In this document: in pieces, positions 5,590 through 54,771 of the stretch | How positions within the stretch are numbered: the stretch's first letter is position 1 | Layout of the letters: the number at the start of each line of letters is the position of its first letter | NCBI GenBank assembly: GCA_022510385.1 | Contig: JAFLTQ010000015.1 | Coordinates: forward strand, 1,451 to 65,450 | Direction of reading: 5' to 3' | DNA from: Muribaculaceae bacterium | GTDB lineage: Bacteria; Bacteroidota; Bacteroidia; Bacteroidales; Muribaculaceae | Length of the DNA: 64,000 bases | The notes under the pieces: generated by a model | The model's input: the letters and a program-made list of their open reading frames with translations, nothing else | Databases searched by the model: none | What the model was told of the DNA's origin: nothing | Position numbers and translations under genes: made by a program

Positions 5590-6750
5590 TTATTTGGTTG
5601 AAAATTTATAAATAGTATGGGAGTTATAGGTTTCTCCAGGATTCAACTGAGTGCTTGGCCATTGAGGTTTGTTGGGCGAATCCGGATAATGCTGGCTTTC
5701 CAGACAAACAGCGGCATGTTGATTATAGGTGATGCCATTTTTGCCGGAGACACTTCCGTTGAGGAAATTCCCGCTGTAGAGTTGCACGCCGGGTTCTGTT
5801 GTATACATAGTGAGGAGAATTCCGCTTTCAGGGTTGTAGAGCTCCACAGCCGGAACGTTTATATCTCCCTGAGTGTTTAGCACGAAATTATGGTCATATC
5901 CATTTCCATTCTTTATCTGCTCGTTGTCGAAGTTTTTGATATTTTCACCCAAGGGTCTTGCATTACGGAAATCAAAAGGAGTTCCCTCCACGGGAGAAAA
6001 TTCGCCGGTAGTCATAAACGTTGAATCAACCGGAGTAAAGTGGTCGGCATTAACCATAATCAAATCATTAGTGACGGGTTGAGAGGGATTCCCTGACAGA
6101 TTGAAATAAGAATGGTTTGTCATATTCAATATTGTCGGCTTGTTGGTAGTGCCGGTGTATTGAATGTCAAGAGAATTGTCATTCTTTAGAGTGTAGGTGA
6201 CCTGCGCATTAACTTCTCCCGGGAAATTATTGTCGCCGTCAGGAGAAACAATTGTGAGAATAAGAGTTGAATCATTCGGTTGCTGAGCCTCATAGACCCT
6301 ATACTGCCAACCTAAGGATCCCATTTCGCCTCCGCCATGCAGGCAATGGCCGAAATTATTCCGGGGAAGCTGAATTGTGTCTCCCTCTATGACGAATCTT
6401 CCTTGATTTATACGGTTGGCATATCTCCCGATAGAAGCTCCGAAATCAGTGAGATTATTTTCCGGGAAATAGTCTTGGATACTGTCAAAACCCAACACAA
6501 CATCACGGAGTTCTCCATTCCTGTCGGCTACCATCAAAGAGACAAGCCTGCCACCGAAATTTGTTATACAGGCCTCTGTGCCTTGGGAATTCTCGAGAGT
6601 GTAAAGAGCTGTTGCTTTCCCTTGATATTGGCCTACGAAATTATTCGGATTAAGTCCCGATTTAGTAAGTTGCGGTCTCTCCTTGTGCGCTCCGCATGAC
6701 GACATGATAATAAGAGCCGATAGGCCGGCAAGCCTTGTAATCCTTTTCAT
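5590..6750 (-). CDS. Aldose 1-epimerase (mutarotase) with lipoprotein signal peptide
   Basis: GRYANRI, LHGG, NMTNHSYFNL, GYDHNF and CLESQHYPDSPN; N-terminal MKRITRLAGLSALIIMSSC lipobox. Confidence 0.92.
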   Translation of the reverse strand: MKRITRLAGLSALIIMSSCGAHKERPQLTKSGLNPNNFVGQYQGKATALYTLENSQGTEACITNFGGRLVSLMVADRNGELRDVVLGFDSIQDYFPENNLTDFGASIGRYANRINQGRFVIEGDTIQLPRNNFGHCLHGGGEMGSLGWQYRVYEAQQPNDSTLILTIVSPDGDNNFPGEVNAQVTYTLKNDNSLDIQYTGTTNKPTILNMTNHSYFNLSGNPSQPVTNDLIMVNADHFTPVDSTFMTTGEFSPVEGTPFDFRNARPLGENIKNFDNEQIKNGNGYDHNFVLNTQGDINVPAVELYNPESGILLTMYTTEPGVQLYSGNFLNGSVSGKNGITYNQHAAVCLESQHYPDSPNKPQWPSTQLNPGETYNSHTIYKFSTK

Positions 6751-7084: not shown

Positions 7085-8584
7085 ATGTTACGAAAAGTCA
7101 GAATAACATTAGGGATATTTTTTTTGATAGGAGCCACATTGCTGTTTTTGGATTTTACCGGCACAGTACATGCCTGGTTGGGATGGATAGCTAAAGTTCA
7201 ATTCTTGCCCGCACTATTTGCAGTCAACATAGCTGTAATAGCCGGATTAGTGGGAATGACCCTCTTGTTCGGAAGAGTCTATTGCTCGGTGATATGCCCG
7301 ATGGGAGTTTTACAAGATGTTATAGCGCGATTTGGGAAATGGAGCAAGAAGAACAGATATTCCTATTCTCCTGCATTAAATGTGTGGCGCTACACTCTTT
7401 TTGGGATTATGATTCTGGCTATAGTTTTAGGGATAGGGTCAATAGTGGGTCTTCTGGCTCCCTATAGTTCCTTTGGTCGAATTATCCATTCCCTATTTTC
7501 TCCTATTTATTTATGGGTCAACAATATCCTTGCCGGATTTGCTGAAAGAGCTGAGAGCTACTCCTTCTATTCAAGAGAAATATGGATCAAGAGTTGGGCT
7601 CTATTCGCCATATCCGCCGTGACACTCCTTGCCATAGGAATTCTTGCATGGAGAAACGGTAGAACCTATTGTAACTCCATCTGTCCTGTAGGGACATTTT
7701 TAGGTTTTCTGTCAAGGTATTCGTTATATCGTCCTACCATTGAAATATCCCGATGTAACAGTTGCGGACTCTGCGCTCGTAACTGCAAATCGGCATGTAT
7801 CGACAGTAAAGCTCACAAAATAGATTATTCGCGATGCGTAAGTTGCATGGATTGCATTGGAAAATGCAATAAACAGGCGATAAAATACACCTACAAGAGA
7901 GAGGAGGCAGCAATAGCAACTCCGGCGGTTGAGACAGTGGAAACGGAAGTTGATGATTCATCAAGACGTAATTTCCTTGGATTAATGGCTTTTGTAGGAG
8001 GGAGCGCATTGATGAAGGCGGCAGAAAAAACCGTAGACGGAGGGCTTGCAGTTATTGAAGACAAGAAGATACCGTTGAGAAATAAACATATATCACCTCC
8101 CGGTTCAAAGGGACATGTCAATATTGCCTCACGATGCACAGGTTGCCAGTTGTGTGTGACAGTTTGTCCGAATCATGTTTTAAGGCCATCCGGAAATCTT
8201 GAAAACTTTATGCATCCGGTAGCATCCTACGAAAGAGGATACTGTCGTCCGGAATGTACCAAATGTTCGGAAGTATGTCCTACAGGAGCAATTCAGAGGA
8301 TAGACCCTGCAGAGAAGTCTGCCATACAGATTGGGCGCGCCCAATGGGTAAAAGAGAATTGTATCCCCCTGACGGATGAGGTGGCATGCGGTAACTGTGC
8401 GCGTCATTGCCCGGTGGAGGCTATTCAGATGGTGGCCTCTGTGAAAGGGGATGAGGAAAGTCTCAAGATACCGGCTGTCAATACAGAGAAATGTATCGGA
8501 TGTGGCGCTTGTGAGAATCTTTGTCCGTCGCGACCCTTCAGCGCAATCTACGTAGAGGGGAATGAGACACATCGTGTCGTTTAA
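7085..8584 (+). CDS. Membrane-bound polyferredoxin (NapH/MauN-like TM region fused to a NapG/MauM-like multi-4Fe-4S region) with internal twin-arginine motif
   Basis: Two Cx3CP motifs (YCSVICPMG, YCNSICPVG); several CxxCxxCxxxC motifs; S-R294-R295-NFLG between the two Fe-S regions. Confidence 0.85.
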   Translation: MLRKVRITLGIFFLIGATLLFLDFTGTVHAWLGWIAKVQFLPALFAVNIAVIAGLVGMTLLFGRVYCSVICPMGVLQDVIARFGKWSKKNRYSYSPALNVWRYTLFGIMILAIVLGIGSIVGLLAPYSSFGRIIHSLFSPIYLWVNNILAGFAERAESYSFYSREIWIKSWALFAISAVTLLAIGILAWRNGRTYCNSICPVGTFLGFLSRYSLYRPTIEISRCNSCGLCARNCKSACIDSKAHKIDYSRCVSCMDCIGKCNKQAIKYTYKREEAAIATPAVETVETEVDDSSRRNFLGLMAFVGGSALMKAAEKTVDGGLAVIEDKKIPLRNKHISPPGSKGHVNIASRCTGCQLCVTVCPNHVLRPSGNLENFMHPVASYERGYCRPECTKCSEVCPTGAIQRIDPAEKSAIQIGRAQWVKENCIPLTDEVACGNCARHCPVEAIQMVASVKGDEESLKIPAVNTEKCIGCGACENLCPSRPFSAIYVEGNETHRVV

Positions 8585-8609
8585 TGTGTAATGCATAATT
8601 CGTAATTAA
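8582..8609 (+). repeat. Degenerate heptamer tandem array
   Basis: TAATGTG TAATGCA TAATTCG TAATTAA starting at the polyferredoxin stop codon. Confidence 0.7.
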
Positions 8610-8622
8610 GAGTAAGAATTTA

Positions 8623-10032
8623 ATGAATAAGGAGAATTTAGATAGGAGAGGGTTTCTTAAAAGATTGGGCCTTGGGGTTTCAGCAGCAGGCCTTACAATG
8701 GCCGGGTGTGGTAGTTCCGGGAAAAAACTTGTGGGAGCCGAAACCTCCAATATTCTCGACGAGGAGGGAGAGATGACCTATCGCATTAATCCACACACCG
8801 GTGATAAGGTGTCGATTTTAGGTTATGGATGCATGCGTTGGCCCTTTAAGGAGGCCAAAGAGGGTGAAGAGGAAGAGATTGATCAGGAAGCCGTCAATCG
8901 ACTCGTAGATTATGCAATAGAGCACGGAGTAAATTATTTCGATACCTCACCTGCATATTGTCGCGGGAAATCAGAGACAGCCACAGGGATAGCTTTAAGT
9001 CGTCATCCGCGTGATAAATATTTTATAGCGACCAAGTTGTCGAATTTCTCACCCAAGACATGGAGCCGGGAAGAATCTTTAAAGATGTATCATAACTCCT
9101 TCAAGAAGTTGCAGGTGGATTATATTGATTATCTGTTGCTGCATGGTGTTGGAATGGGATCTGACGCAATGGAGGAATTCCGCAACCGCTACGTGGATAA
9201 CGGAGTGCTTGACTTTCTTTTGAAAGAGAGGGAGGAGGGGAGAATCCGGAATCTCGGTTTTTCCTATCATGGAGATATAAAGGTGTTTGATTACCTGTTG
9301 GAAAACAATGACAAATATAATTGGGATTTTGTGCAGATACAGCATAATTATCTCGATTGGAATCATGCCAAGGATACAAATAAAAGGAACACTGATTCAG
9401 AATATCTTTATACGGAATTGGAGAAGAGGAATATCCCGGCCGTGATAATGGAGCCGCTTTTAGGAGGGAGGCTCTCGAATGTTCCTGATCATCTAATGGC
9501 CCGGCTTAAGGAGCAAGAACCGGAAAAAAGTGTAGCTTCCTGGGCCTTCCGTTATGCGGGCACTTTCCCTAATATTCTCACAGTGCTAAGTGGGATGACT
9601 TTTATGGAACATTTGGAAGATAACGTGTCGACATATAGCCCTTTGAAGCCATTGACGGATGAGGAGATAAAATTTCTCTATGACACTGCGGATCTTATGG
9701 TGCAATATCCCACAATAGCCTGCAATGACTGCAAATACTGCATGCCATGTCCATACGGGATTGACATACCGGCTATTCTGTTGCATTATAACAAATGTGT
9801 GAATCAAGGGAATATCCCTCAAAACAGCCGGCATCCCGACTATGCCAAGGCACGAAGGGCGTTTCTGATAGGGTATGACAGAAGTGTGCCGAAACTAAGA
9901 CAGGCAAGCCATTGCATAGGGTGTGGGCAATGCGTGCCTCATTGCCCTCAGAATATAAAAATTCCGGATCGCCTGCATGCTATTGATGCTTTTGTGGAGA
10001 AAGTGAAACAAAACAAAGAGGAATTAGCTTAA
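8623..10032 (+). CDS. Aldo/keto reductase with C-terminal 4Fe-4S dicluster; Tat-type lipoprotein
   Basis: Signal LDRRGFLK...MAG-C29; AKR tetrad candidates YFDTSPAY, IATKL and LLHG; CNDCKYCMPCP and CIGCGQCVPHCP. Confidence 0.9.
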   Translation: MNKENLDRRGFLKRLGLGVSAAGLTMAGCGSSGKKLVGAETSNILDEEGEMTYRINPHTGDKVSILGYGCMRWPFKEAKEGEEEEIDQEAVNRLVDYAIEHGVNYFDTSPAYCRGKSETATGIALSRHPRDKYFIATKLSNFSPKTWSREESLKMYHNSFKKLQVDYIDYLLLHGVGMGSDAMEEFRNRYVDNGVLDFLLKEREEGRIRNLGFSYHGDIKVFDYLLENNDKYNWDFVQIQHNYLDWNHAKDTNKRNTDSEYLYTELEKRNIPAVIMEPLLGGRLSNVPDHLMARLKEQEPEKSVASWAFRYAGTFPNILTVLSGMTFMEHLEDNVSTYSPLKPLTDEEIKFLYDTADLMVQYPTIACNDCKYCMPCPYGIDIPAILLHYNKCVNQGNIPQNSRHPDYAKARRAFLIGYDRSVPKLRQASHCIGCGQCVPHCPQNIKIPDRLHAIDAFVEKVKQNKEELA

Positions 10033-10037
10033 TTTTG
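10030..10037 (+). promoter_or_regulatory. Possible internal -7 promoter box (TAATTTTG) for tatA-tatC, overlapping the AKR stop codon
   Basis: Exact TAnnTTTG match about 65 nt before the tatA ATG; no -33 TTTG at canonical spacing. Confidence 0.4.
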
Positions 10038-10100
10038 CAGTTAATAATAAATAGAAGCTGTTCTTAGATTTTTATTACAATAAAAAAACAGATATATATT

Positions 10101-10298
10101 ATGTTGGATTTTATAGGTGGACTTGGATTTCAGGAAATTCTTTTGATCGCATTAGTGGTGTTGCTATTCTTCGGAGGTAAGAAGATACCTGAAATGATGA
10201 AGGGTCTCGGAAAGGGTGTAAAAGCCTTCAAAGATGGTATGAAGGAAGTTGACACCGACGTTAAAGTAGAGGCAACCGAGGAATCAAAAAAAGATTGA
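10101..10298 (+). CDS. tatA: Twin-arginine translocase TatA/E subunit
   Basis: [38 protein letters not shown]. Confidence 0.95.
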
Positions 10299-10322
10299 AA
10301 TCGGGGTTAATTGAGATAAAGA

Positions 10323-11147
10323 ATGGTTGATAAAGAGGGGGCAGGCTCTTTCTGGGATCATCTTGATGAATTGCGAAATGTGCTGCTTAAGATTACCCTT
10401 GTGGCAATTTTATGCGGCATAGTTGCATTTTTGTTTAAAGAACTGCTTTTCACAATAGTTCTCGCTCCCAAAGAGGAGAGTTTCATCACCTACCGATGGA
10501 TCGAAAAAATCGGGGGAGTTTTCAGTGCCACGCCGGTTGAGGGGTTTGATGTGAGTCTGATCAATACCGGACTTGCACAACAATTTGTTATACACATGAA
10601 GACTGCCTTATGTTTCGGAGTCTTGTGTGCCTCTCCCTATATCTTGTATCAATTGTTCCGGTTTGTATCCCCTGCTCTCTATGAAACAGAGCGCCGTTAT
10701 GCATTGCAGGTAGTAGGGAACGGCTACCTGATGTTTATAGTAGGAGTTATGATAGGGTATTTTCTGATATTTCCCCTCACGTTCCGTTTCCTTGGCACTT
10801 ATCAGGTGTCTGAAGAAGTTGTAAATATGATTTCTTTAGATTCCTATATGTCTACTTTGGTTCTGATTTGTCTGGCTATGGGCGTGGTGTTTGAATTGCC
10901 CGTTGTCTGTTGGCTCTTTGCCAGAATGGGATTCTTAAATTCCGCTTTCATGAAGAAGTATAGGAAACATTCAATAGTAGGTGTATTGATTGTAGCTGCT
11001 GTAATCACCCCTACGAGTGATGTCTTTACATTGCTTGCTGTTTCGCTGCCGATGTATCTTCTCTATGAAGCGAGTATACTATTAGTCTCATTCACTGAAA
11101 GGAAAAGAGAAAGGGAGGGAATTGAAAGCGATCTTATGACAACATAG
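10323..11147 (+). CDS. tatC: Twin-arginine translocase subunit TatC
   Basis: SFWDHLDELR, FVSPALYETE, GVVFELP, AAVITPTSD and PMYLLYEASI. Confidence 0.96.
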   Translation: MVDKEGAGSFWDHLDELRNVLLKITLVAILCGIVAFLFKELLFTIVLAPKEESFITYRWIEKIGGVFSATPVEGFDVSLINTGLAQQFVIHMKTALCFGVLCASPYILYQLFRFVSPALYETERRYALQVVGNGYLMFIVGVMIGYFLIFPLTFRFLGTYQVSEEVVNMISLDSYMSTLVLICLAMGVVFELPVVCWLFARMGFLNSAFMKKYRKHSIVGVLIVAAVITPTSDVFTLLAVSLPMYLLYEASILLVSFTERKREREGIESDLMTT

Positions 11148-11155
11148 CAAAGATA

Positions 11156-11209
11156 CGACCTGTCGGGTAGGCTACACATAGGTTGTTGCATAACGGACGC
11201 GACAGGTCG
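11156..11209. repeat. Inverted repeat (10-bp perfect arms) between convergent tatC and tkt; possible terminator
   Basis: CGACCTGTCG (11156-11165) and CGACAGGTCG (11200-11209); no U-tract. Confidence 0.5.
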
Positions 11210-26348: not shown

Positions 26349-26398
26349 CATAATATTCTAATATTTTTTTCGTTATTTTAGTGGATAATTTCACGAAA

Positions 26399-29300
26399 AT
26401 GCCTAATCTATCTTTTTTTAACAGAAAAAACCTGATCCTATTTTCGGCTATTTGCTTAGCCGGACAATATAGCCATGCGTTCGATGCAGATTATTATGCA
26501 ACCGGTTCAGCTCTTGCCGACGGTAACTGGGCAAAAATCGAAGTGACGGAAACAGGCATGCAATTCTTGAGCGACGCCACCCTCAGAAATCTGGGATTCT
26601 CAAGCCCGGAAAATGTCAATGTTTATGGGTATGGGGGTGTCATGATTCCTGAAAATCTTAACACGCCTGACGACTTGCCGCTTATTCCCTCTATAAGAAC
26701 AGATGGCGGGATTATCTTTTTCGGCGAAGCATCCGTTGGATGGGAGATTAACAGCACGGGAACCTCAGCTTTCTCTCATATTTCTCACCCTTATTCCGAC
26801 AGGGCTTATTATTTCGTGAGCGATGTAAACGAACAGCGACGTGCACCGGAAAAATATTCATCTCAGGCAGCTCCAAGTCAAACAATTACAACTTTCACTG
26901 AGCGCCTCGTGCATGAGCAAGACCTTTTCATGCCGATGGAGTCGGGGAGGTTGATGCTCGGAGAAGACTTCAAGACCCAAAGCTCGAGAAATTTCAATTT
27001 CTCTATGCCCGACAATACCGGCGATGCCACTGTTACCGTGGCTTTTGGTTGTAAAACATCTTCCGGCACTTCCTCAATTGTGGTGTCGGCCAACAACCGC
27101 CAACTCCCGGCTACAACCACCGACCAAATGGCATTTTCTTCATCCAAACTTATTGTTACAACCACAACTACAAAAACGGTGGAAAATCCCGGGAATTCTC
27201 TGAATCTTTCAATAAAGTTCAATGGATCCGGATCTGTCTCCACTGCTGCCCTTAATTATATTGAAGTTGAATATCCGAGAAATCTCCAAATAAATTCCGG
27301 AGAACTATATTTTTATATTTCTCCCAAGGAGGCTTCAGAAGTGGTCGTGTCAGGCGCCTCTGCAAGCACCTTGCTCTGGGACGTCACAGACCCGATTAAT
27401 CCGAAAGAAATTTCCACAGTAAAATCCGGCTCCTCGCTATCTTTTATCTCCGATGCGGGATATCATGAATTTGTAGCTTTCGATACATCACGAATCTCCA
27501 GAAGCGTCACTCCGTCATGGAAAATTGAGAATCAGGATCTTCACTCGATTGAGGCTCCCGATATGCTTGTGATATGTCCGGCAGAGTTTCTTCCGGCGGC
27601 TCAGCGATTACAAGCTTTCCATTCTCAGACAGATGGTCTGCAACTTTGCATCCTGACGCCCGAGCAAATTTACAACGAATTCTCGTCAGGTAAACCGGAT
27701 GTCACAGCTTTCAGAAAGCTTCTAAAAATGTGGTATGACCGTGCCGGAGGCGAAGTCGGTAAATTCCCGGCTTACTGCACAATAATGAGCAGGCCAACTT
27801 TCGACAACAAACAGATCACACCCCAAGTAAAAAATTCCGGTTATCCGCGCGTTCCTATTTGGCAATCACCTACAGGTGAAACCGAAACAACGTCCTATGG
27901 TACTGACGATTATATCGGAATGTTGGGCGATGTGCCCGGTCAATTCAATATCGGGTCAGCCGAAATTAATGTCGCAGTAGCAAGAATGCCATTCAAAACT
28001 CTCACAGAAGCCAACACCGTCTTAGACAAACTGGAGAATTATATCCTGAATCCGGATTTGGGTGCTTGGCGAAATAATGTTATGGTGATTGCCGACGACC
28101 AAGACAGCGGAGTTCATCTCGATCAGGCGGAAAAAGTGATAGCGGCAATGCAATCGCCTGCAAAGGGTACTGAATTCCAATATGAAAAGCTTTATCTTGA
28201 TGCATACCCATTGGAATATTCAGGAGTGGGAGCAACCTACCCTCAGGCCCATAATCGTCTATTGAACAAGTGGAATGAAGGCCTCACCTTTATCGACTAT
28301 ATTGGGCATGCAAATGCTTCCTCATGGGGTCATGAATATCTTTTAACTTGGCCTAACATAATTTCGATGAGCAACCCACGCCTGCCTTTCATCTATGCGG
28401 CCACCTGTAACTTTATGAGATGGGATGCCAATGATGTCAGCGGAGCTGAAGTGTTATGGCTCCTTCCCAACTCGGGAGCTATCGGGCTTATTTGTCCAAG
28501 CAGAGAAGTGCTCATATCAGCTAACGGAGTATTAAATATAAGCACGGCTAAATATTTCTTCGCACAAGATGAACAGGGTAATTACCTTAGCGTGGGCGAA
28601 ATTATGAGGCGTGGAAAAAATGACAGTAACACCGGAACCAACAAACTTCGGTACGCATTAATCGGAGACCCGTCATTGAGGCTCCCCTTCCCAAATCTTA
28701 ATGTGATTGTGGATAAAGTTAATGGTGTCGAGCTTGCGGAAGCTAAAGAGGCTCCAATCTTAAAAGCACGGTCCACTGTCACAATCTCAGGCCATGTCGA
28801 AGATTTCTACGGCAACCATTCAGATGATTTTAACGGGATTGCTGAGATTACTCTTTATGATGCCGAGAAAGTCATCACTACCAACGGTAACGGCTCTGAT
28901 GGAGTTCAATCTGTCTACAACGACCGTAAGACCCGTCTGTTCGTGGGAAGAACAACTGTAAAAGATGGTAAATGGGAAACAACCTTCACCATGCCCTCCG
29001 AAATCGAGAATAATTATTCGCCTGCCCTGATATCCCTCTATGCTTTCAGTGAGGATGGCCAAGAGGGAAACGGATCTTCTGATAAGATTTATGCTTATGG
29101 ATATGATGAGGATGCTCCGGATGATTTCGAAGGGCCTAAGATGATTGAATTCTACCTTAACAATCCTTCATTTGTGAGTGGTAATCAGGTTAGTCCCAGT
29201 CCGACCCTGGTAGCCAAATTCTTTGATGAGTCAGGCATAAGTGTCTCTGAAGCCGGTATAGGCCACAACATATCTCTGACTCTCGACGGGACTACTTTTT

Positions 29301-29782
29301 ATGATGATGTGGCTCTGTATTACCGACCGGATGAAAATGAATCGGGCACAGGAAGTCTCACTTATTCACTCGGAGAAGTGTCTCAAGGAAAACATACGCT
29401 CGAACTAACCGTGTGGGATAATGCCAACAATTCAACAACCGCCAGCCTTGAATTCTCAATTTCGGCTCTTTGGAAACCGGCCATCGAGATGCTGACCACC
29501 GATGTCAATCCGGCAGTCTCGAGTGTCAATTTCATTGTGGCAACAGATGGAAGCACTTCTTCTATGGAGTGTGCTATTGAAATTTTTGATATTTGGGGTA
29601 GAAAGGTTTGGAGAGATACGGCTCCCTCACTTACCAGCGCTTCAACGAGAACTTCCATGGGTTGGGATCTTTGTGACTTCGGAGGCTCAAGAGTTCCGGC
29701 AGGAATATATCTTTATAAAGCCACTGTCAAAACGGATTCCGGAGCAACTGTCACAAAAACGAAAAAACTTATTGTGAAATAG
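26399..29782 (+). CDS. porU: Type IX secretion system sortase PorU (C25 gingipain-like peptidase)
   Basis: Signal peptide; S.LA.GNWAKI.V.ETG, QIYNEFSSGKPDVTAFR, DDYIGML, DYIGH (His), YAATC (Cys), LIGDPSL and C-terminal CTD (GIYLYK...TKTKKLIVK). Confidence 0.93.
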   Translation: MPNLSFFNRKNLILFSAICLAGQYSHAFDADYYATGSALADGNWAKIEVTETGMQFLSDATLRNLGFSSPENVNVYGYGGVMIPENLNTPDDLPLIPSIRTDGGIIFFGEASVGWEINSTGTSAFSHISHPYSDRAYYFVSDVNEQRRAPEKYSSQAAPSQTITTFTERLVHEQDLFMPMESGRLMLGEDFKTQSSRNFNFSMPDNTGDATVTVAFGCKTSSGTSSIVVSANNRQLPATTTDQMAFSSSKLIVTTTTTKTVENPGNSLNLSIKFNGSGSVSTAALNYIEVEYPRNLQINSGELYFYISPKEASEVVVSGASASTLLWDVTDPINPKEISTVKSGSSLSFISDAGYHEFVAFDTSRISRSVTPSWKIENQDLHSIEAPDMLVICPAEFLPAAQRLQAFHSQTDGLQLCILTPEQIYNEFSSGKPDVTAFRKLLKMWYDRAGGEVGKFPAYCTIMSRPTFDNKQITPQVKNSGYPRVPIWQSPTGETETTSYGTDDYIGMLGDVPGQFNIGSAEINVAVARMPFKTLTEANTVLDKLENYILNPDLGAWRNNVMVIADDQDSGVHLDQAEKVIAAMQSPAKGTEFQYEKLYLDAYPLEYSGVGATYPQAHNRLLNKWNEGLTFIDYIGHANASSWGHEYLLTWPNIISMSNPRLPFIYAATCNFMRWDANDVSGAEVLWLLPNSGAIGLICPSREVLISANGVLNISTAKYFFAQDEQGNYLSVGEIMRRGKNDSNTGTNKLRYALIGDPSLRLPFPNLNVIVDKVNGVELAEAKEAPILKARSTVTISGHVEDFYGNHSDDFNGIAEITLYDAEKVITTNGNGSDGVQSVYNDRKTRLFVGRTTVKDGKWETTFTMPSEIENNYSPALISLYAFSEDGQEGNGSSDKIYAYGYDEDAPDDFEGPKMIEFYLNNPSFVSGNQVSPSPTLVAKFFDESGISVSEAGIGHNISLTLDGTTFYDDVALYYRPDENESGTGSLTYSLGEVSQGKHTLELTVWDNANNSTTASLEFSISALWKPAIEMLTTDVNPAVSSVNFIVATDGSTSSMECAIEIFDIWGRKVWRDTAPSLTSASTRTSMGWDLCDFGGSRVPAGIYLYKATVKTDSGATVTKTKKLIVK

Positions 29783-30444: not shown

Positions 30445-31668
30445 ATGTCACGCAAGATATTTTCCTCAATAGCATTACTGGCACTGGGCGGCATGGCGAC
30501 AATGCAAGCTCAGAATGACATCAAGGATGATGACTTCAATCCGGTCAATACCGGAGTCACAACCTTGAGCATCACGCCTGATGCACGTGGATCCGGCATG
30601 GGAAACCTCGGAGCGGCTACCGACCCTGATGTAAACTCCCAATTTTGGAATCCCTCTAAATATGCATTTGCATATAGCAAATCAGCTGTAGCGATTTCTT
30701 ACACTCCTTGGCTCCGAAAGATTGTAAACGATATTTTCCTTGCAGACCTTACAGGATACTATAAGCTCGGGAGCAACGACAATCAGGCTCTAAGCGCCTC
30801 TTTCAGATATTTCTCCCTTGGAGAAGTCACTATGGGTTATGGCGACACCGGTCTTGATGGAGTGCAGACCATTCATCCTTATGAATTTGCATTCGATTTA
30901 GGCTATTCACGAAAACTCTCGGAGAAATTCTCAATGGGAGTCGTAATGCGATACATATTGTCAGACCTCTCTTATGAGGATGCCTATTCCGGCGACACCA
31001 ACACGGCAGCCAGCGCCTTTTCCGCAGATATTTCCGGATATTTCGTCACATATCCTATGATAGGAAGAAGCGAATGTCAGTTTGCGTGGGGTTTTGATAT
31101 CTCAAATATAGGTACAAAAGTCAGCTATGACCATGGACAGAACTATGCGTTTCTTCCTACAAACCTGAGACTCGGAGCTCAATTCATGTTCCCTTTAGCC
31201 GACTATAACACACTCTCTGTAGGACTTGACCTTAACAAGCTCCTGGTTCCGACTATGCCACGCCTTAAAGACTTTAACAATGGCGAAACAATCGAAGATC
31301 AGCAGGCTTACGAAGAGGCCAAAGAAAAATGGGAGACAATGTCGCCTATAACAGGTATTTTCAAAAGTTTTTCTGATGCTCCGGGAGGTTTTAAAGAAGA
31401 ATTAGAAGAGATATCGGTATCATTCGGTGGCGAATATGCCTATAATCAACAATTTTTTGCACGCCTTGGATACAACTATGAAGCTGCCTCAAAGGGTGGA
31501 AGAAGCTATTTCACTTTTGGTGCAGGGTTTTCACTCAATATTGTGAGACTCGATGCATCATATATGCTGGCAACGGCACAAAGTTCCCCTCTTGATCAGA
31601 CTCTTCGGTTCACTCTAAGTTTCGATCTCGAAGGTTTACAAGACCTCATCGGTAAAAGACGCCGCTGA
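30445..31668 (+). CDS. porV: T9SS outer-membrane shuttle/channel PorV
   Basis: NPVNTGV..L.I.PDARG.GMG, DPDVNSQFWNPSKY, SYTPWLR, LPTNLRLG and PLDQTLRFTLSFD. Confidence 0.93.
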   Translation: MSRKIFSSIALLALGGMATMQAQNDIKDDDFNPVNTGVTTLSITPDARGSGMGNLGAATDPDVNSQFWNPSKYAFAYSKSAVAISYTPWLRKIVNDIFLADLTGYYKLGSNDNQALSASFRYFSLGEVTMGYGDTGLDGVQTIHPYEFAFDLGYSRKLSEKFSMGVVMRYILSDLSYEDAYSGDTNTAASAFSADISGYFVTYPMIGRSECQFAWGFDISNIGTKVSYDHGQNYAFLPTNLRLGAQFMFPLADYNTLSVGLDLNKLLVPTMPRLKDFNNGETIEDQQAYEEAKEKWETMSPITGIFKSFSDAPGGFKEELEEISVSFGGEYAYNQQFFARLGYNYEAASKGGRSYFTFGAGFSLNIVRLDASYMLATAQSSPLDQTLRFTLSFDLEGLQDLIGKRRR

Positions 31669-53724: not shown

Positions 53725-54771
53725 TCAGGCTATTCCAAAGGCAAAGCGAATAGTTTCCTGATACGGTTCGCCCGGTTTAAGCTCTTGGGACGGGAATTGA
53801 GGTTTATTCGGAGCATCGGGAAAACCTTGCATCTCTATAGCCACGCCGTCGTAGTCGTTATAAGATTTGCCGCTCTTGTTGAGAGGACACCCGCTCAACC
53901 AATTACCAGTATAGATCTGAACTCCGGGCTGAGTAGAACTTATAGTCAGGATTCTTCCCGAGGATGGAGCTTCAAGCACTACCGCATCCTCTATTAATTT
54001 CCCCTTCTGCCATTCGTCAATAACCCAGCAATGGTCATATCCTTTCCCTATCTTGAGGGGTTCAAAATCTGCATTGATATCCTTACCGATCTCCTTTGGT
54101 TCTAAGAAATCCATAGGAGTTCCCTCAACCGGGGCAAATTCTCCCGTCGGAATCTGAGTTGAATCGGTGGGTAGATATTTGTGGGCCTTCAATTGCAATT
54201 TATGCTTCAAAACGCTTCCTGAATCTGCACCCTCAAGATTGAAATAGGCATGGTTTGTAAGATTTACAACTGTCTTTGCGTCGGTTTCCCCTTTCAAGGT
54301 CAAAGTCAAGACATTATCATCACTCCATGTATATTCGGCCGTAACCGTCAAATTCCCCGGATAGTTCTCTTCGCCATCTTTCGCTCTATATATGAATCTT
54401 ACTCCGTTAGGAATTAGGGATGCCTCCCAGATATGGTTCTGGAAACCGGTAGGTCCTCCGTGAAGGGCGTTTGGGCCGTTGTTTATATTGAGCTGATAAC
54501 TTTTCCCATCAATCTCAAGATGCCCCTTGGCTATTCTGTTGGCATATCTTCCGGGTATCTTTCCCATGCAGGGTCCGTCAGCCATATAATCAGCAGGGTT
54601 GGCATAACCTAAAGCCACTTCTCCTAATTTCCCTGTCTTATCAGGCACAATCACTGAAGTTATGCCGGCTCCCAAGCTTGAAACTTCCACGGAAGCCCCT
54701 CCTTTATTCTCAATCCGGAAGAGACTTATAGTCCCTTCCGGTGAGTTTACAGTTGTTTGTGTTATTTTCAT
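53725..54771 (-). CDS. galM: Cytoplasmic aldose 1-epimerase
   Basis: GRYANRI, ALHGG, NLTNHAYFNL, GYDHCW and AIEMQGFPDAPN; no signal peptide. Confidence 0.93.
   Translation of the reverse strand: MKITQTTVNSPEGTISLFRIENKGGASVEVSSLGAGITSVIVPDKTGKLGEVALGYANPADYMADGPCMGKIPGRYANRIAKGHLEIDGKSYQLNINNGPNALHGGPTGFQNHIWEASLIPNGVRFIYRAKDGEENYPGNLTVTAEYTWSDDNVLTLTLKGETDAKTVVNLTNHAYFNLEGADSGSVLKHKLQLKAHKYLPTDSTQIPTGEFAPVEGTPMDFLEPKEIGKDINADFEPLKIGKGYDHCWVIDEWQKGKLIEDAVVLEAPSSGRILTISSTQPGVQIYTGNWLSGCPLNKSGKSYNDYDGVAIEMQGFPDAPNKPQFPSQELKPGEPYQETIRFAFGIA

Follow-up and report, generated by a model that had tools for sequence, protein, structure and literature searches.

In a 64,000-nucleotide stretch of the genome of a Muribaculaceae bacterium (GenBank assembly GCA_022510385.1, contig JAFLTQ010000015.1, positions 1,451 to 65,450; hereafter the window, in whose own numbering all positions are given), we observed a polyferredoxin gene directly followed by a gene for an aldo-keto reductase (AKR) that carries an iron-sulfur (Fe-S) domain and, behind these two, the genes for the TatA and TatC proteins of the Tat pathway (Tat, twin-arginine translocation). 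The polyferredoxin-AKR pair is the actual conserved unit of this locus. We propose, tentatively and with somewhat less than even confidence, that the two proteins are subunits of one membrane-anchored, periplasm-facing, menaquinone-coupled oxidoreductase that works in the reductive direction. The module consists of four open reading frames (ORFs) on the + strand, at 7085-11147, separated by gaps of 38, 68 and 24 nucleotides (nt); an earlier note on this DNA had drawn the same four genes, with coordinates that match exactly. The lengths below are in amino acids (aa).

7085-8584, + strand: ORF1, polyferredoxin, 499 aa, a NapH-NapG fusion (NapH models, a NapG model, Fer4_5 and many Fer4 matches)
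8623-10032, + strand: ORF2, AKR, 469 aa, a predicted Tat-signal lipoprotein with a C-terminal two-[4Fe-4S]-cluster domain (PF00248 and Fer4_9)
10101-10298, + strand: ORF3, tatA, 65 aa (TIGR01411 above cut-off; sole tblastn match in the window)
10323-11147, + strand: ORF4, tatC, 274 aa (PF00902, 2.9e-65; TIGR00945 above cut-off; sole match in the window)

Conservation of the polyferredoxin-AKR pair

A scan of species-representative genomes with the AKR yielded at least 600 matches, and the AKR-centred neighbourhood counts given here refer to the best 80 of these, one genome per species. The 80 assemblies, which are labelled as, or resemble, Bacteroidales (a few records carry other, probably wrong, names), represent Muribaculaceae, Duncaniella, Prevotella, Bacteroides, Phocaeicola, Alistipes, Parabacteroides, Odoribacter and Butyricimonas. 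The polyferredoxin gene lies directly upstream of the AKR gene in 75 of the 80 loci or, when only those with enough upstream sequence are considered, in 70 of 74, with a median gap of about 37 nt. Clustering of all neighbouring ORFs revealed no other recurrent redox enzyme in these neighbourhoods, which argues that the AKR is the terminal partner of the polyferredoxin; the same clustering showed no recurrent nap genes in the 80 loci.

The pairing extends to distant relatives of the AKR. Six Tat-signal AKRs with 34-44% identity to the window protein were reached by exact look-ups, a profile search with the distant Tat-AKRs having returned only Bacteroidales-like sequences. A polyferredoxin gene adjoins the AKR gene in four of the five informative loci, and three of these four have the AKR gene first and the polyferredoxin gene second, the reverse of the order in the window; the internal twin arginine (RR) that is described in the next section is seen in both distant polyferredoxin loci that reach the respective region (K-T-RR-AVL and M-T-RR-ELL). 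Because the adjacency holds in distant loci and in either gene order, the pair is old and survives rearrangement. One of the distant paired loci (L166:2506-9860) comes from an organism with a gene for the Gram-positive-type division protein SepF; there, the pair stands beside three more Tat-signal lipoproteins, namely, a metallo-beta-lactamase fold protein, an FMN reductase and a Flavodoxin_4 protein.

The polyferredoxin: a NapH-NapG fusion with an internal Tat signal

The NapH models cover aa 52-273 of the polyferredoxin and the NapG model covers aa 291-481, with a match that begins at profile position 8 and so takes in the Tat-signal region of NapG itself. The scores against the equivalog models, 57 bits for NapG (cut-off 269) and 63 bits for NapH (cut-off 234), fall far below the cut-offs, so the polyferredoxin is not an orthologue of either protein. 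The following features are recognized, with "Sec" denoting the general secretion pathway.

7103-7651, + strand: four Sec-type transmembrane helices, aa 7-25, 44-62, 105-123 and 171-189, each with an apparent insertion free energy (dGapp) of at most 0.8 on the Hessa scale
C67/C71 (aa 67-72) and C196/C200 (aa 196-201, nt 7670-7687), + strand: two NapH-type CX3CP motifs (motif scan)
7754-7867, + strand: two CX2CX2CX3C [4Fe-4S] motifs, aa 224-234 and 251-261 (motif scan), with the cysteines invariant in 49 homologues
7961-8014, + strand: internal Tat signal, S293-R-R-N-F-L, 15 uncharged hydrophobic residues (aa 296-310), then K-A-A-E-K (motif scan)
8135-8527, + strand: NapG-like domain (NapG model) with four Fe-S motifs from aa 351, 387, 426/435 and 470, all 16 cysteines invariant

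The median Hessa-scale energies of helices 1 to 4 in 120 homologues are 0.0, -2.2, -2.4 and -1.5, respectively, and reading of the sequence revealed no heme-binding or other membrane-spanning cofactor motifs in the four helices. The RR at aa 294-295 (S-RR-NFLG) is the only one in the protein, and the same motif reads RR in 113 and KR in seven of the 120 homologues. The segment that follows lacks the length and the hydrophobicity with which it would score as a Sec transmembrane helix and is succeeded by K311 and K315; in the homologues, this segment is also far less favourable for insertion than helices 1-4 and is likewise followed by Lys residues. Such a short, weak fifth segment with Lys residues behind it agrees with the rule that Tooke et al. 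(2017; PMC5449189) established for the handover from Sec to Tat in dual Sec/Tat proteins.

The same work (eLife, PMC5449189) demonstrated experimentally that a polyferredoxin of the delta-proteobacterium MLMS-1, also a NapH-NapG fusion, needs both Sec and Tat. Like the MLMS-1 protein, the window polyferredoxin combines a NapH-like membrane part and its cytoplasmic clusters with an RR that precedes a weak fifth segment and positive charges, and with a four-cluster NapG-like part, so that these shared sequence features support its assignment to the dual Sec/Tat NapH-NapG fusion class. By the published topology of NapH (PMC5449189), the CX2CX2CX3C motifs that start at aa 224 and 251 are predicted to face the cytoplasm. 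The NapG-like domain is predicted to be periplasmic. The earlier note had described NapH-like helices, two plus four Fe-S motifs and the internal S-RR-NFL signal at aa 294-295, and had placed the protein in the dual Sec/Tat class; each of these features is present, and the internal RR, which according to that note should be conserved in homologues, is indeed conserved.

There are also differences from the MLMS-1 family. The taxa listed for that family in PMC5449189 include Chloroflexi, Nitrospirae, Euryarchaeota and others, whereas Bacteroidetes appear only under a YkuE-like family, and the paper names no catalytic partner for the polyferredoxin (neither "aldo" nor "operon" occurs in its text). 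Furthermore, in the window protein, the segment after the RR has no more than about 15 uncharged residues, behind which comes a conserved motif, [IVLM]-x-A-[AQE]-[ED]-K-x-VDGG (window 8015-8035, aa 311-317), that resembles a signal peptidase I site. Conceivably, the NapG-like domain may be cut free of the membrane part after export rather than left anchored.

The AKR: a predicted exported lipoprotein with two Fe-S clusters

Three parts can be distinguished in the AKR.

8623-8709, + strand: Tat/lipoprotein signal peptide, D-RR-GFLK (aa 7-13), a hydrophobic stretch and M-A-G-C29 (sequence read)
8818-9672, + strand: AKR (alpha/beta)8 barrel with the tetrad D107, Y112, K138 and H174 (PF00248, AlphaFold2, Foldseek)
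9721-9948, + strand: ferredoxin-like domain, C367-X2-C-X2-C-X2-C-P and C431-X2-C-X2-C-X3-C-P (Fer4_9, aa 366-444)

The N-terminus (MNKENLD-RR-GFLK...LTMAG-C29) conforms to the pattern of S/T-R-R-x-F-L-K, a hydrophobic stretch and a lipobox cysteine, from which export and lipidation are predicted. The RR is found in 119 of 120 close homologues, the exception being N-terminally truncated, and all of them have a cysteine after the hydrophobic stretch; R8, R9, G28 and C29 are invariant in an alignment of 60 AKR sequences, and R-R occupies the aligned columns in 23 of 25 diverse representatives of the Tat clade. In the sequence as read, the acidic motif for surface export in Bacteroidota is absent after C29. 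Apart from the AKR and the polyferredoxin, no ORF in the 64 kb window carries a plausible Tat motif, N-terminal or internal; because the motifs are unique to these two ORFs in the window and conserved in their homologues, they are more than chance.

PF00248 matches aa 66-350 (1.5e-36, 126 bits against a cut-off of 24) over profile positions 2-284 of 291, the barrel in the AlphaFold2 model has a predicted local distance difference test score (pLDDT) above 90, and a Foldseek search with it retrieves AKRs with an expectation value (E) of about 1e-14, with L-galactose dehydrogenases on top. The tetrad is invariant in 60 close homologues and kept in 22-23 of the 25 Tat-clade and 56-58 of 60 cytoplasmic representatives. 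The cofactor loops E-P-L-L-G-G and S-G-M...H-L-E-D-N are kept, but where other AKRs usually have, in G-x-S-N, an Asn in contact with the carboxamide, this family has S-[FY]-H. All eight cysteines of the Fe-S domain (367/370/373/376 and 431/434/437/441) are invariant in 85 diverse representatives. Thus, the AKR of the earlier note, with its Tat lipoprotein signal (DRRGFLK...AG-C), intact tetrad and two 4Fe-4S motifs, is found as described, save that the first Fe-S motif has the noncanonical spacing CX2CX2CX2CP, versus the canonical CX2CX2CX3CP. No entry that joins an AKR with an Fe-S domain was found in the PDB, either by sequence or by fold.

The homologues of the AKR form at least 8000 clusters at 90% identity; at 50% clustering, 818 representative proteins with E below 1e-30 fall into two groups. 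Proteins of the first group (about 450-490 aa) have RR motifs and align from residue 2-7 of the window AKR, whereas those of the second (about 375 aa, COG1453 type) have no signal peptide and align from residue 51-63, the N-terminal extension being absent. The D-Y-K-H tetrad and the eight Fe-S cysteines are preserved in both groups, as are the family motifs S-[FY]-H, Q-x-N-Y-x-D, E-P-x-x-G-G and S-G-M...N. The DUF1893 and five-transmembrane-segment (5-TM) gene neighbours discussed below, a context noted for the cytoplasmic type, recur in many Bacteroidales loci; what the exported clade adds is the Tat/lipoprotein signal and the polyferredoxin partner. Judging from these shared sequence features, the exported clade would be the same kind of enzyme as the cytoplasmic clade, relocated to a compartment without free NAD(P)H. 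Because the cytoplasmic clade shares the tetrad and the eight cysteines, the likely electron port of the whole family is the Fe-S domain rather than soluble NAD(P)H.

A possible menaquinone-coupled periplasmic reductase

From the domains, motifs, conservation and linkage of these genes, we infer the following topology, electron path, quinone coupling and direction, together with a bound nicotinamide. Sec would insert the four NapH-like helices, so that the first two Fe-S clusters stay cytoplasmic, and the internal twin-arginine signal would then pass the folded four-cluster NapG-like domain to TatAC for translocation. The AKR would fold in the cytoplasm, where it would gain two [4Fe-4S] clusters and, probably, a non-exchangeable nicotinamide, and would then be exported by Tat and lipid-anchored at Cys29. 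Electrons would flow from the menaquinone pool through the NapH-like part, the four NapG-like clusters and the two AKR clusters to the AKR active site, allowing the AKR to turn over in a compartment without free NAD(P)H. Menaquinol would thereby reduce a periplasmic carbonyl compound, either for detoxification or in the processing of an imported small molecule.

The quinone coupling of the polyferredoxin is suggested by its likeness to NapGH. The NapGH and NosGH systems of E. coli and Wolinella succinogenes contain these two kinds of domain as well; Sec inserts one of them, Tat exports the other, and together they pass electrons from quinol to a Tat-exported periplasmic enzyme. There, however, they are separate polypeptides that serve a molybdenum or copper enzyme (NapAB, NosZ), whereas here they are fused and the enzyme is an AKR. 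By this analogy, we rate the pair as a putative quinol-dehydrogenase-type module that feeds a Tat-exported enzyme, with an unexpected catalytic subunit. MsrPQ of E. coli (cited in PMC5449189) is similar in that a Tat-exported periplasmic reductase receives respiratory-chain electrons via a membrane partner and performs repair or detoxification without NAD(P)H, but it consists of a molybdenum enzyme and a heme b membrane protein rather than an AKR and an Fe-S protein. As precedents, NapGH, NosGH and MsrPQ speak for reduction, as do the stress-related genes near the pair in relatives, and a reductive or detoxifying role fits the rubredoxin/superoxide dismutase and AraC/flavodoxin-like/short-chain dehydrogenase/AKR contexts that are described below. 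For the bound nicotinamide, a partial parallel is the glucose-fructose oxidoreductase of Zymomonas mobilis, which is exported by Tat to the periplasm and holds its NADP(H) tightly and without exchange but differs in having the Gfo/Idh/MocA fold, no Fe-S and a cofactor that is recycled by a second substrate.

Several points weigh against this scheme. Transfer of electrons from menaquinol (about -74 mV) to a carbonyl or to bound NADP+ (about -320 mV) is thermodynamically uphill, and we know of no enzyme that couples Fe-S clusters to nicotinamide without a flavin. The closest AKRs of solved structure are sugar dehydrogenases that act oxidatively. Because the NapH and NapG equivalog scores are so far below the cut-offs, quinol oxidation is drawn by analogy. 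The AlphaFold2 models add little here, with low confidence throughout for the polyferredoxin (pLDDT 46) and in the Fe-S domain of the AKR, where the geometry between clusters and active site is unreadable. Finally, 65-70% of the relatives have no tatAC near the pair.

The alternative that survives best is rather unlikely, in our estimate, and takes the same two proteins in the opposite direction: the exported AKR would be a periplasmic dehydrogenase, for instance, of an aldose or an alcohol, with a bound cofactor re-oxidised via the Fe-S clusters and electrons delivered to menaquinone and on to fumarate reductase. Electron flow from such a substrate to menaquinone would be downhill, and L-galactose dehydrogenases are the best matches of the barrel by sequence as well as by structure, although with an identity of only 20-24%. 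Menaquinone-fumarate respiration, which Bacteroidales run (the topic of PMC10739449), would provide an outlet for the electrons. However, sugar-utilisation genes are not conserved beside the pair, and all characterised NapGH-type modules are known to donate electrons outward (see also PMC5449189). On balance, we prefer the reductive over the reverse direction, by a narrow margin.

A further possibility, unlikely but compatible with either electron direction, is that the pair belongs to a route by which one specific small molecule, for instance, a vitamin or a cofactor, is taken up and processed. In 23 of the 60 AKR-centred loci with sufficient downstream sequence, two additional genes lie downstream of the AKR gene, between it and tatA, one for a DUF1893/TM1506 protein of about 142 aa (PF08973, 1.2e-50) and one for a 5-TM protein (about 170 aa) that weakly matches the S component of energy-coupling factor (ECF) transporters (PF12822); five loci contain, in the same region, a gene for a small BtuB-like TonB-dependent receptor. 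Under this scenario, the TonB-dependent receptor would bring the molecule into the periplasm, the AKR would alter its redox state, the ECF-S-like 5-TM protein would import it, and the DUF1893/TM1506 protein, in the cytoplasm, would bind it or load a nucleotide cofactor. Iyer et al. (2011; PMC3239186) had already pointed out the AKR/TM1506/5-TM gene context, also in Firmicutes, and had suggested NAD or ADP-ribose as the ligand of TM1506. Nevertheless, none of the three partner genes, which the earlier note does not mention, is present in the 64 kb window, an Rfam scan gave no match in the window and, in eight related loci, only tRNAs and small RNAs but no riboswitch, and the 5-TM assignment is below the Pfam threshold, with no relative found in a PDB search. 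Loci that exemplify the DUF1893/5-TM arrangement are L008, L015, L017, L025, L079 and L088.

Still less probable is a scheme in which the polyferredoxin is not coupled to quinone and a cytoplasmic ferredoxin or flavodoxin instead feeds the cytoplasmic clusters, from which electrons are relayed across the membrane to the AKR. A low-potential source would lift the thermodynamic problem, and this scheme would give employment to the two conserved cytoplasmic [4Fe-4S] motifs and to the four CX3CP cysteines, which have no assigned role. With no membrane-spanning cofactor motif in the helices, however, there is no evident path across the bilayer, and NapGH is described as a quinol dehydrogenase (PMC5449189).

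Linkage to tatAC and the clients of Tat in Bacteroidales

The TatA/E model TIGR01411 gives 61.8 bits with the window protein (cut-off 53.9) and the TatC model TIGR00945 gives 162.7 bits (cut-off 132.7). The 64 kb window contains no second tatA, second tatC or TatB gene and no further copy of any module gene. Of the AKR-centred loci, 60 have at least 4 kb of downstream sequence, and 18 of these contain a same-strand tatA-tatC pair within the flank. When TatC is taken as the starting point, the AKR gene, the polyferredoxin gene or both are found beside tatAC in 18 of 80 metagenome loci and in seven of the 20 that have full flanks. The linkage is, accordingly, about 30-35% from either starting gene, and it occurs in the gene orders polyferredoxin-AKR-tatAC, polyferredoxin-AKR-DUF1893-5TM-tatAC, tatAC-polyferredoxin-AKR and AKR-polyferredoxin-DUF1893-5TM-tatAC. 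Given that about 0.1% would be expected by chance (assuming one tatC per genome of about 3 Mb) and that at least three gene orders are involved, the linkage is not incidental and has been kept through several rearrangements. That the proximity of tatAC is nonetheless due to chance, with both RR motifs non-functional and both proteins on the cytoplasmic face of the membrane, is, in our view, highly improbable because, although most relatives have no tatAC beside the pair, the linkage exceeds expectation so greatly, the RR motifs are nearly invariant over deep divergence, the cytoplasmic AKR homologues simply lack the N-terminal extension, and the same-class polyferredoxin of MLMS-1 has been shown to be Tat-dependent (PMC5449189).

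Whereas the linkage seen in the earlier note is thus real, the description of the module in that note as self-contained, with its own TatAC, is overstated: the linkage is limited to about one-third of the relatives, and elsewhere tatAC stands beside other Tat clients, so it is probably a general minimal Tat system kept near its major clients, not a private translocase. Bacillus subtilis phoD-tatAd-tatCd is a known case of a minimal TatA-TatC pair, without TatB, beside a client gene. The arrangement in the window is similar, but TatAdCd of B. subtilis is a second, dedicated, phosphate-regulated system, whereas the window shows no sign of a second Tat system and about a third of the relatives keep the linkage.

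Several of the other clients are themselves AKRs. On other Bacteroidales metagenome contigs, classical AKRs of 374-395 aa that have Tat signals but no Fe-S domain are encoded a few kb upstream of tatAC (L094:2552-3676, L115, L101:7454-8641 and L139:6262-7443), and exported AKRs seem to be a wider theme in Bacteroidales. In L083 (3702-4712), L086 and L087, loci without the Fe-S AKR, a gene about 4 kb upstream of tatAC encodes a Tat-signal protein of 336 aa that resembles amidohydrolases. In L007, a contig from a closely related member of the Muribaculaceae, a second Fe-S AKR paralogue, again a Tat lipoprotein, directly follows tatC, from 9716 to the contig end. Altogether, 143 ORFs with Tat motifs were found in 2.09 Mb of Bacteroidales DNA, a sample that is biased towards these neighbourhoods, and nearly all of them are this AKR or this polyferredoxin. 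Our reading of these observations is that AKR-type enzymes are among the main exported clients of the Bacteroidales Tat system.

A more sweeping version of the proposal, which we consider doubtful, is that a large clade of AKRs is periplasmic and operates without exchangeable NAD(P)H, on single electrons that come from the menaquinone pool through six Fe-S clusters, via a permanently bound nicotinamide or none, and that exported AKRs, with or without Fe-S, are a principal reason why gut Bacteroidales keep Tat. If this is true, an Fe-S-driven periplasmic AKR would be new chemistry for the AKR superfamily.

Implications

The polyferredoxin class, the ordinary TatA and TatC, and the AKR/TM1506/5-TM context are already known. 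In the literature on Tat and AKRs, on COG1453 and on Tat clients of Bacteroides, we found no description of a Tat-exported Fe-S AKR, of its pairing with the polyferredoxin or of the linkage to tatAC. The pair is very widespread: species-representative genomes that have it number at least 600, and the best-matching 80 of them are spread over the main groups of gut Bacteroidales. If the model of a menaquinone-coupled periplasmic reductase holds, the pair would give dominant gut anaerobes a new terminal module for respiration or detoxification, dual Sec/Tat polyferredoxins would have, in the AKR, their first physiological partner, and the Tat pathway in Bacteroidales would acquire a concrete purpose. 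The system would also offer a direct test of an Fe-S-driven AKR barrel, which is equally relevant to the large cytoplasmic COG1453 family. The abundance of the pair in gut Bacteroidales and the question of how Fe-S drives an AKR barrel are the grounds for an experimental follow-up.

Genomic neighbourhoods

Beyond the DUF1893 and 5-TM genes, the relatives show other gene contexts. In a prevalent species that is represented by at least 77 contigs (L162-L164; 7096-11401), the genes directly upstream of the pair encode rubredoxin and an Fe/Mn superoxide dismutase, with a PnuC-type transporter of nicotinamide mononucleotide and a TonB-dependent receptor encoded divergently further upstream and a SIR2 gene downstream. 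Other relatives have, near the pair, AraC-type regulators with flavodoxin-like lipoproteins, short-chain dehydrogenases and ordinary AKRs. Without naming a substrate, these neighbours hint at one of two roles, detoxification or the processing of a specific small molecule after its import.

In the window, the genes upstream of the module, on the opposite strand, are araA, araD and those for a sodium/solute symporter (SSS) and a GalM-type mutarotase. The divergent arabinose operon of the earlier note is, hence, present, but genes for GalM, the SSS symporter or transketolase stand beside the pair in none of the 80 other genomes, so we treat this neighbourhood as incidental and not as a functional clue, and a link to arabinose or pentose metabolism was rejected. 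Recent horizontal transfer was also rejected given that the guanine-plus-cytosine content, which is uniform across the window, does not set the module (0.41-0.46) apart and that the genes on either side have housekeeping functions. The closest homologues of the AKR and the polyferredoxin, with 82-87% identity, come from Muribaculaceae metagenome-assembled genomes. No exact match to the Bacteroides -7 box (TAnnTTTG) was found in the 334-nt upstream region or in the intergenic gaps. The 3' end of the module is followed by one further element.

11156-11209, strand not assigned: perfect 10 bp inverted repeat (11156-11165 / 11200-11209), with an RNA fold of -25.7 kcal/mol, between the convergent tatC and transketolase genes

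This repeat is, possibly, a bidirectional terminator that closes the module. Downstream of it lie the genes for transketolase, a DJ-1-like protein, lipid A and cell-envelope functions, and the type IX secretion proteins PorU and PorV; PorU (Peptidase_C25) and PorV are encoded at 26381-29782 and 30445-31668, respectively, as fits a Bacteroidota chromosome. The GalM-type mutarotase that adjoins the module (5590-6750, - strand) has a lipoprotein-like signal (…IIMSSC), and a GalM paralogue with 40% identity to it is encoded elsewhere in the window, at 53725-54771 on the - strand.

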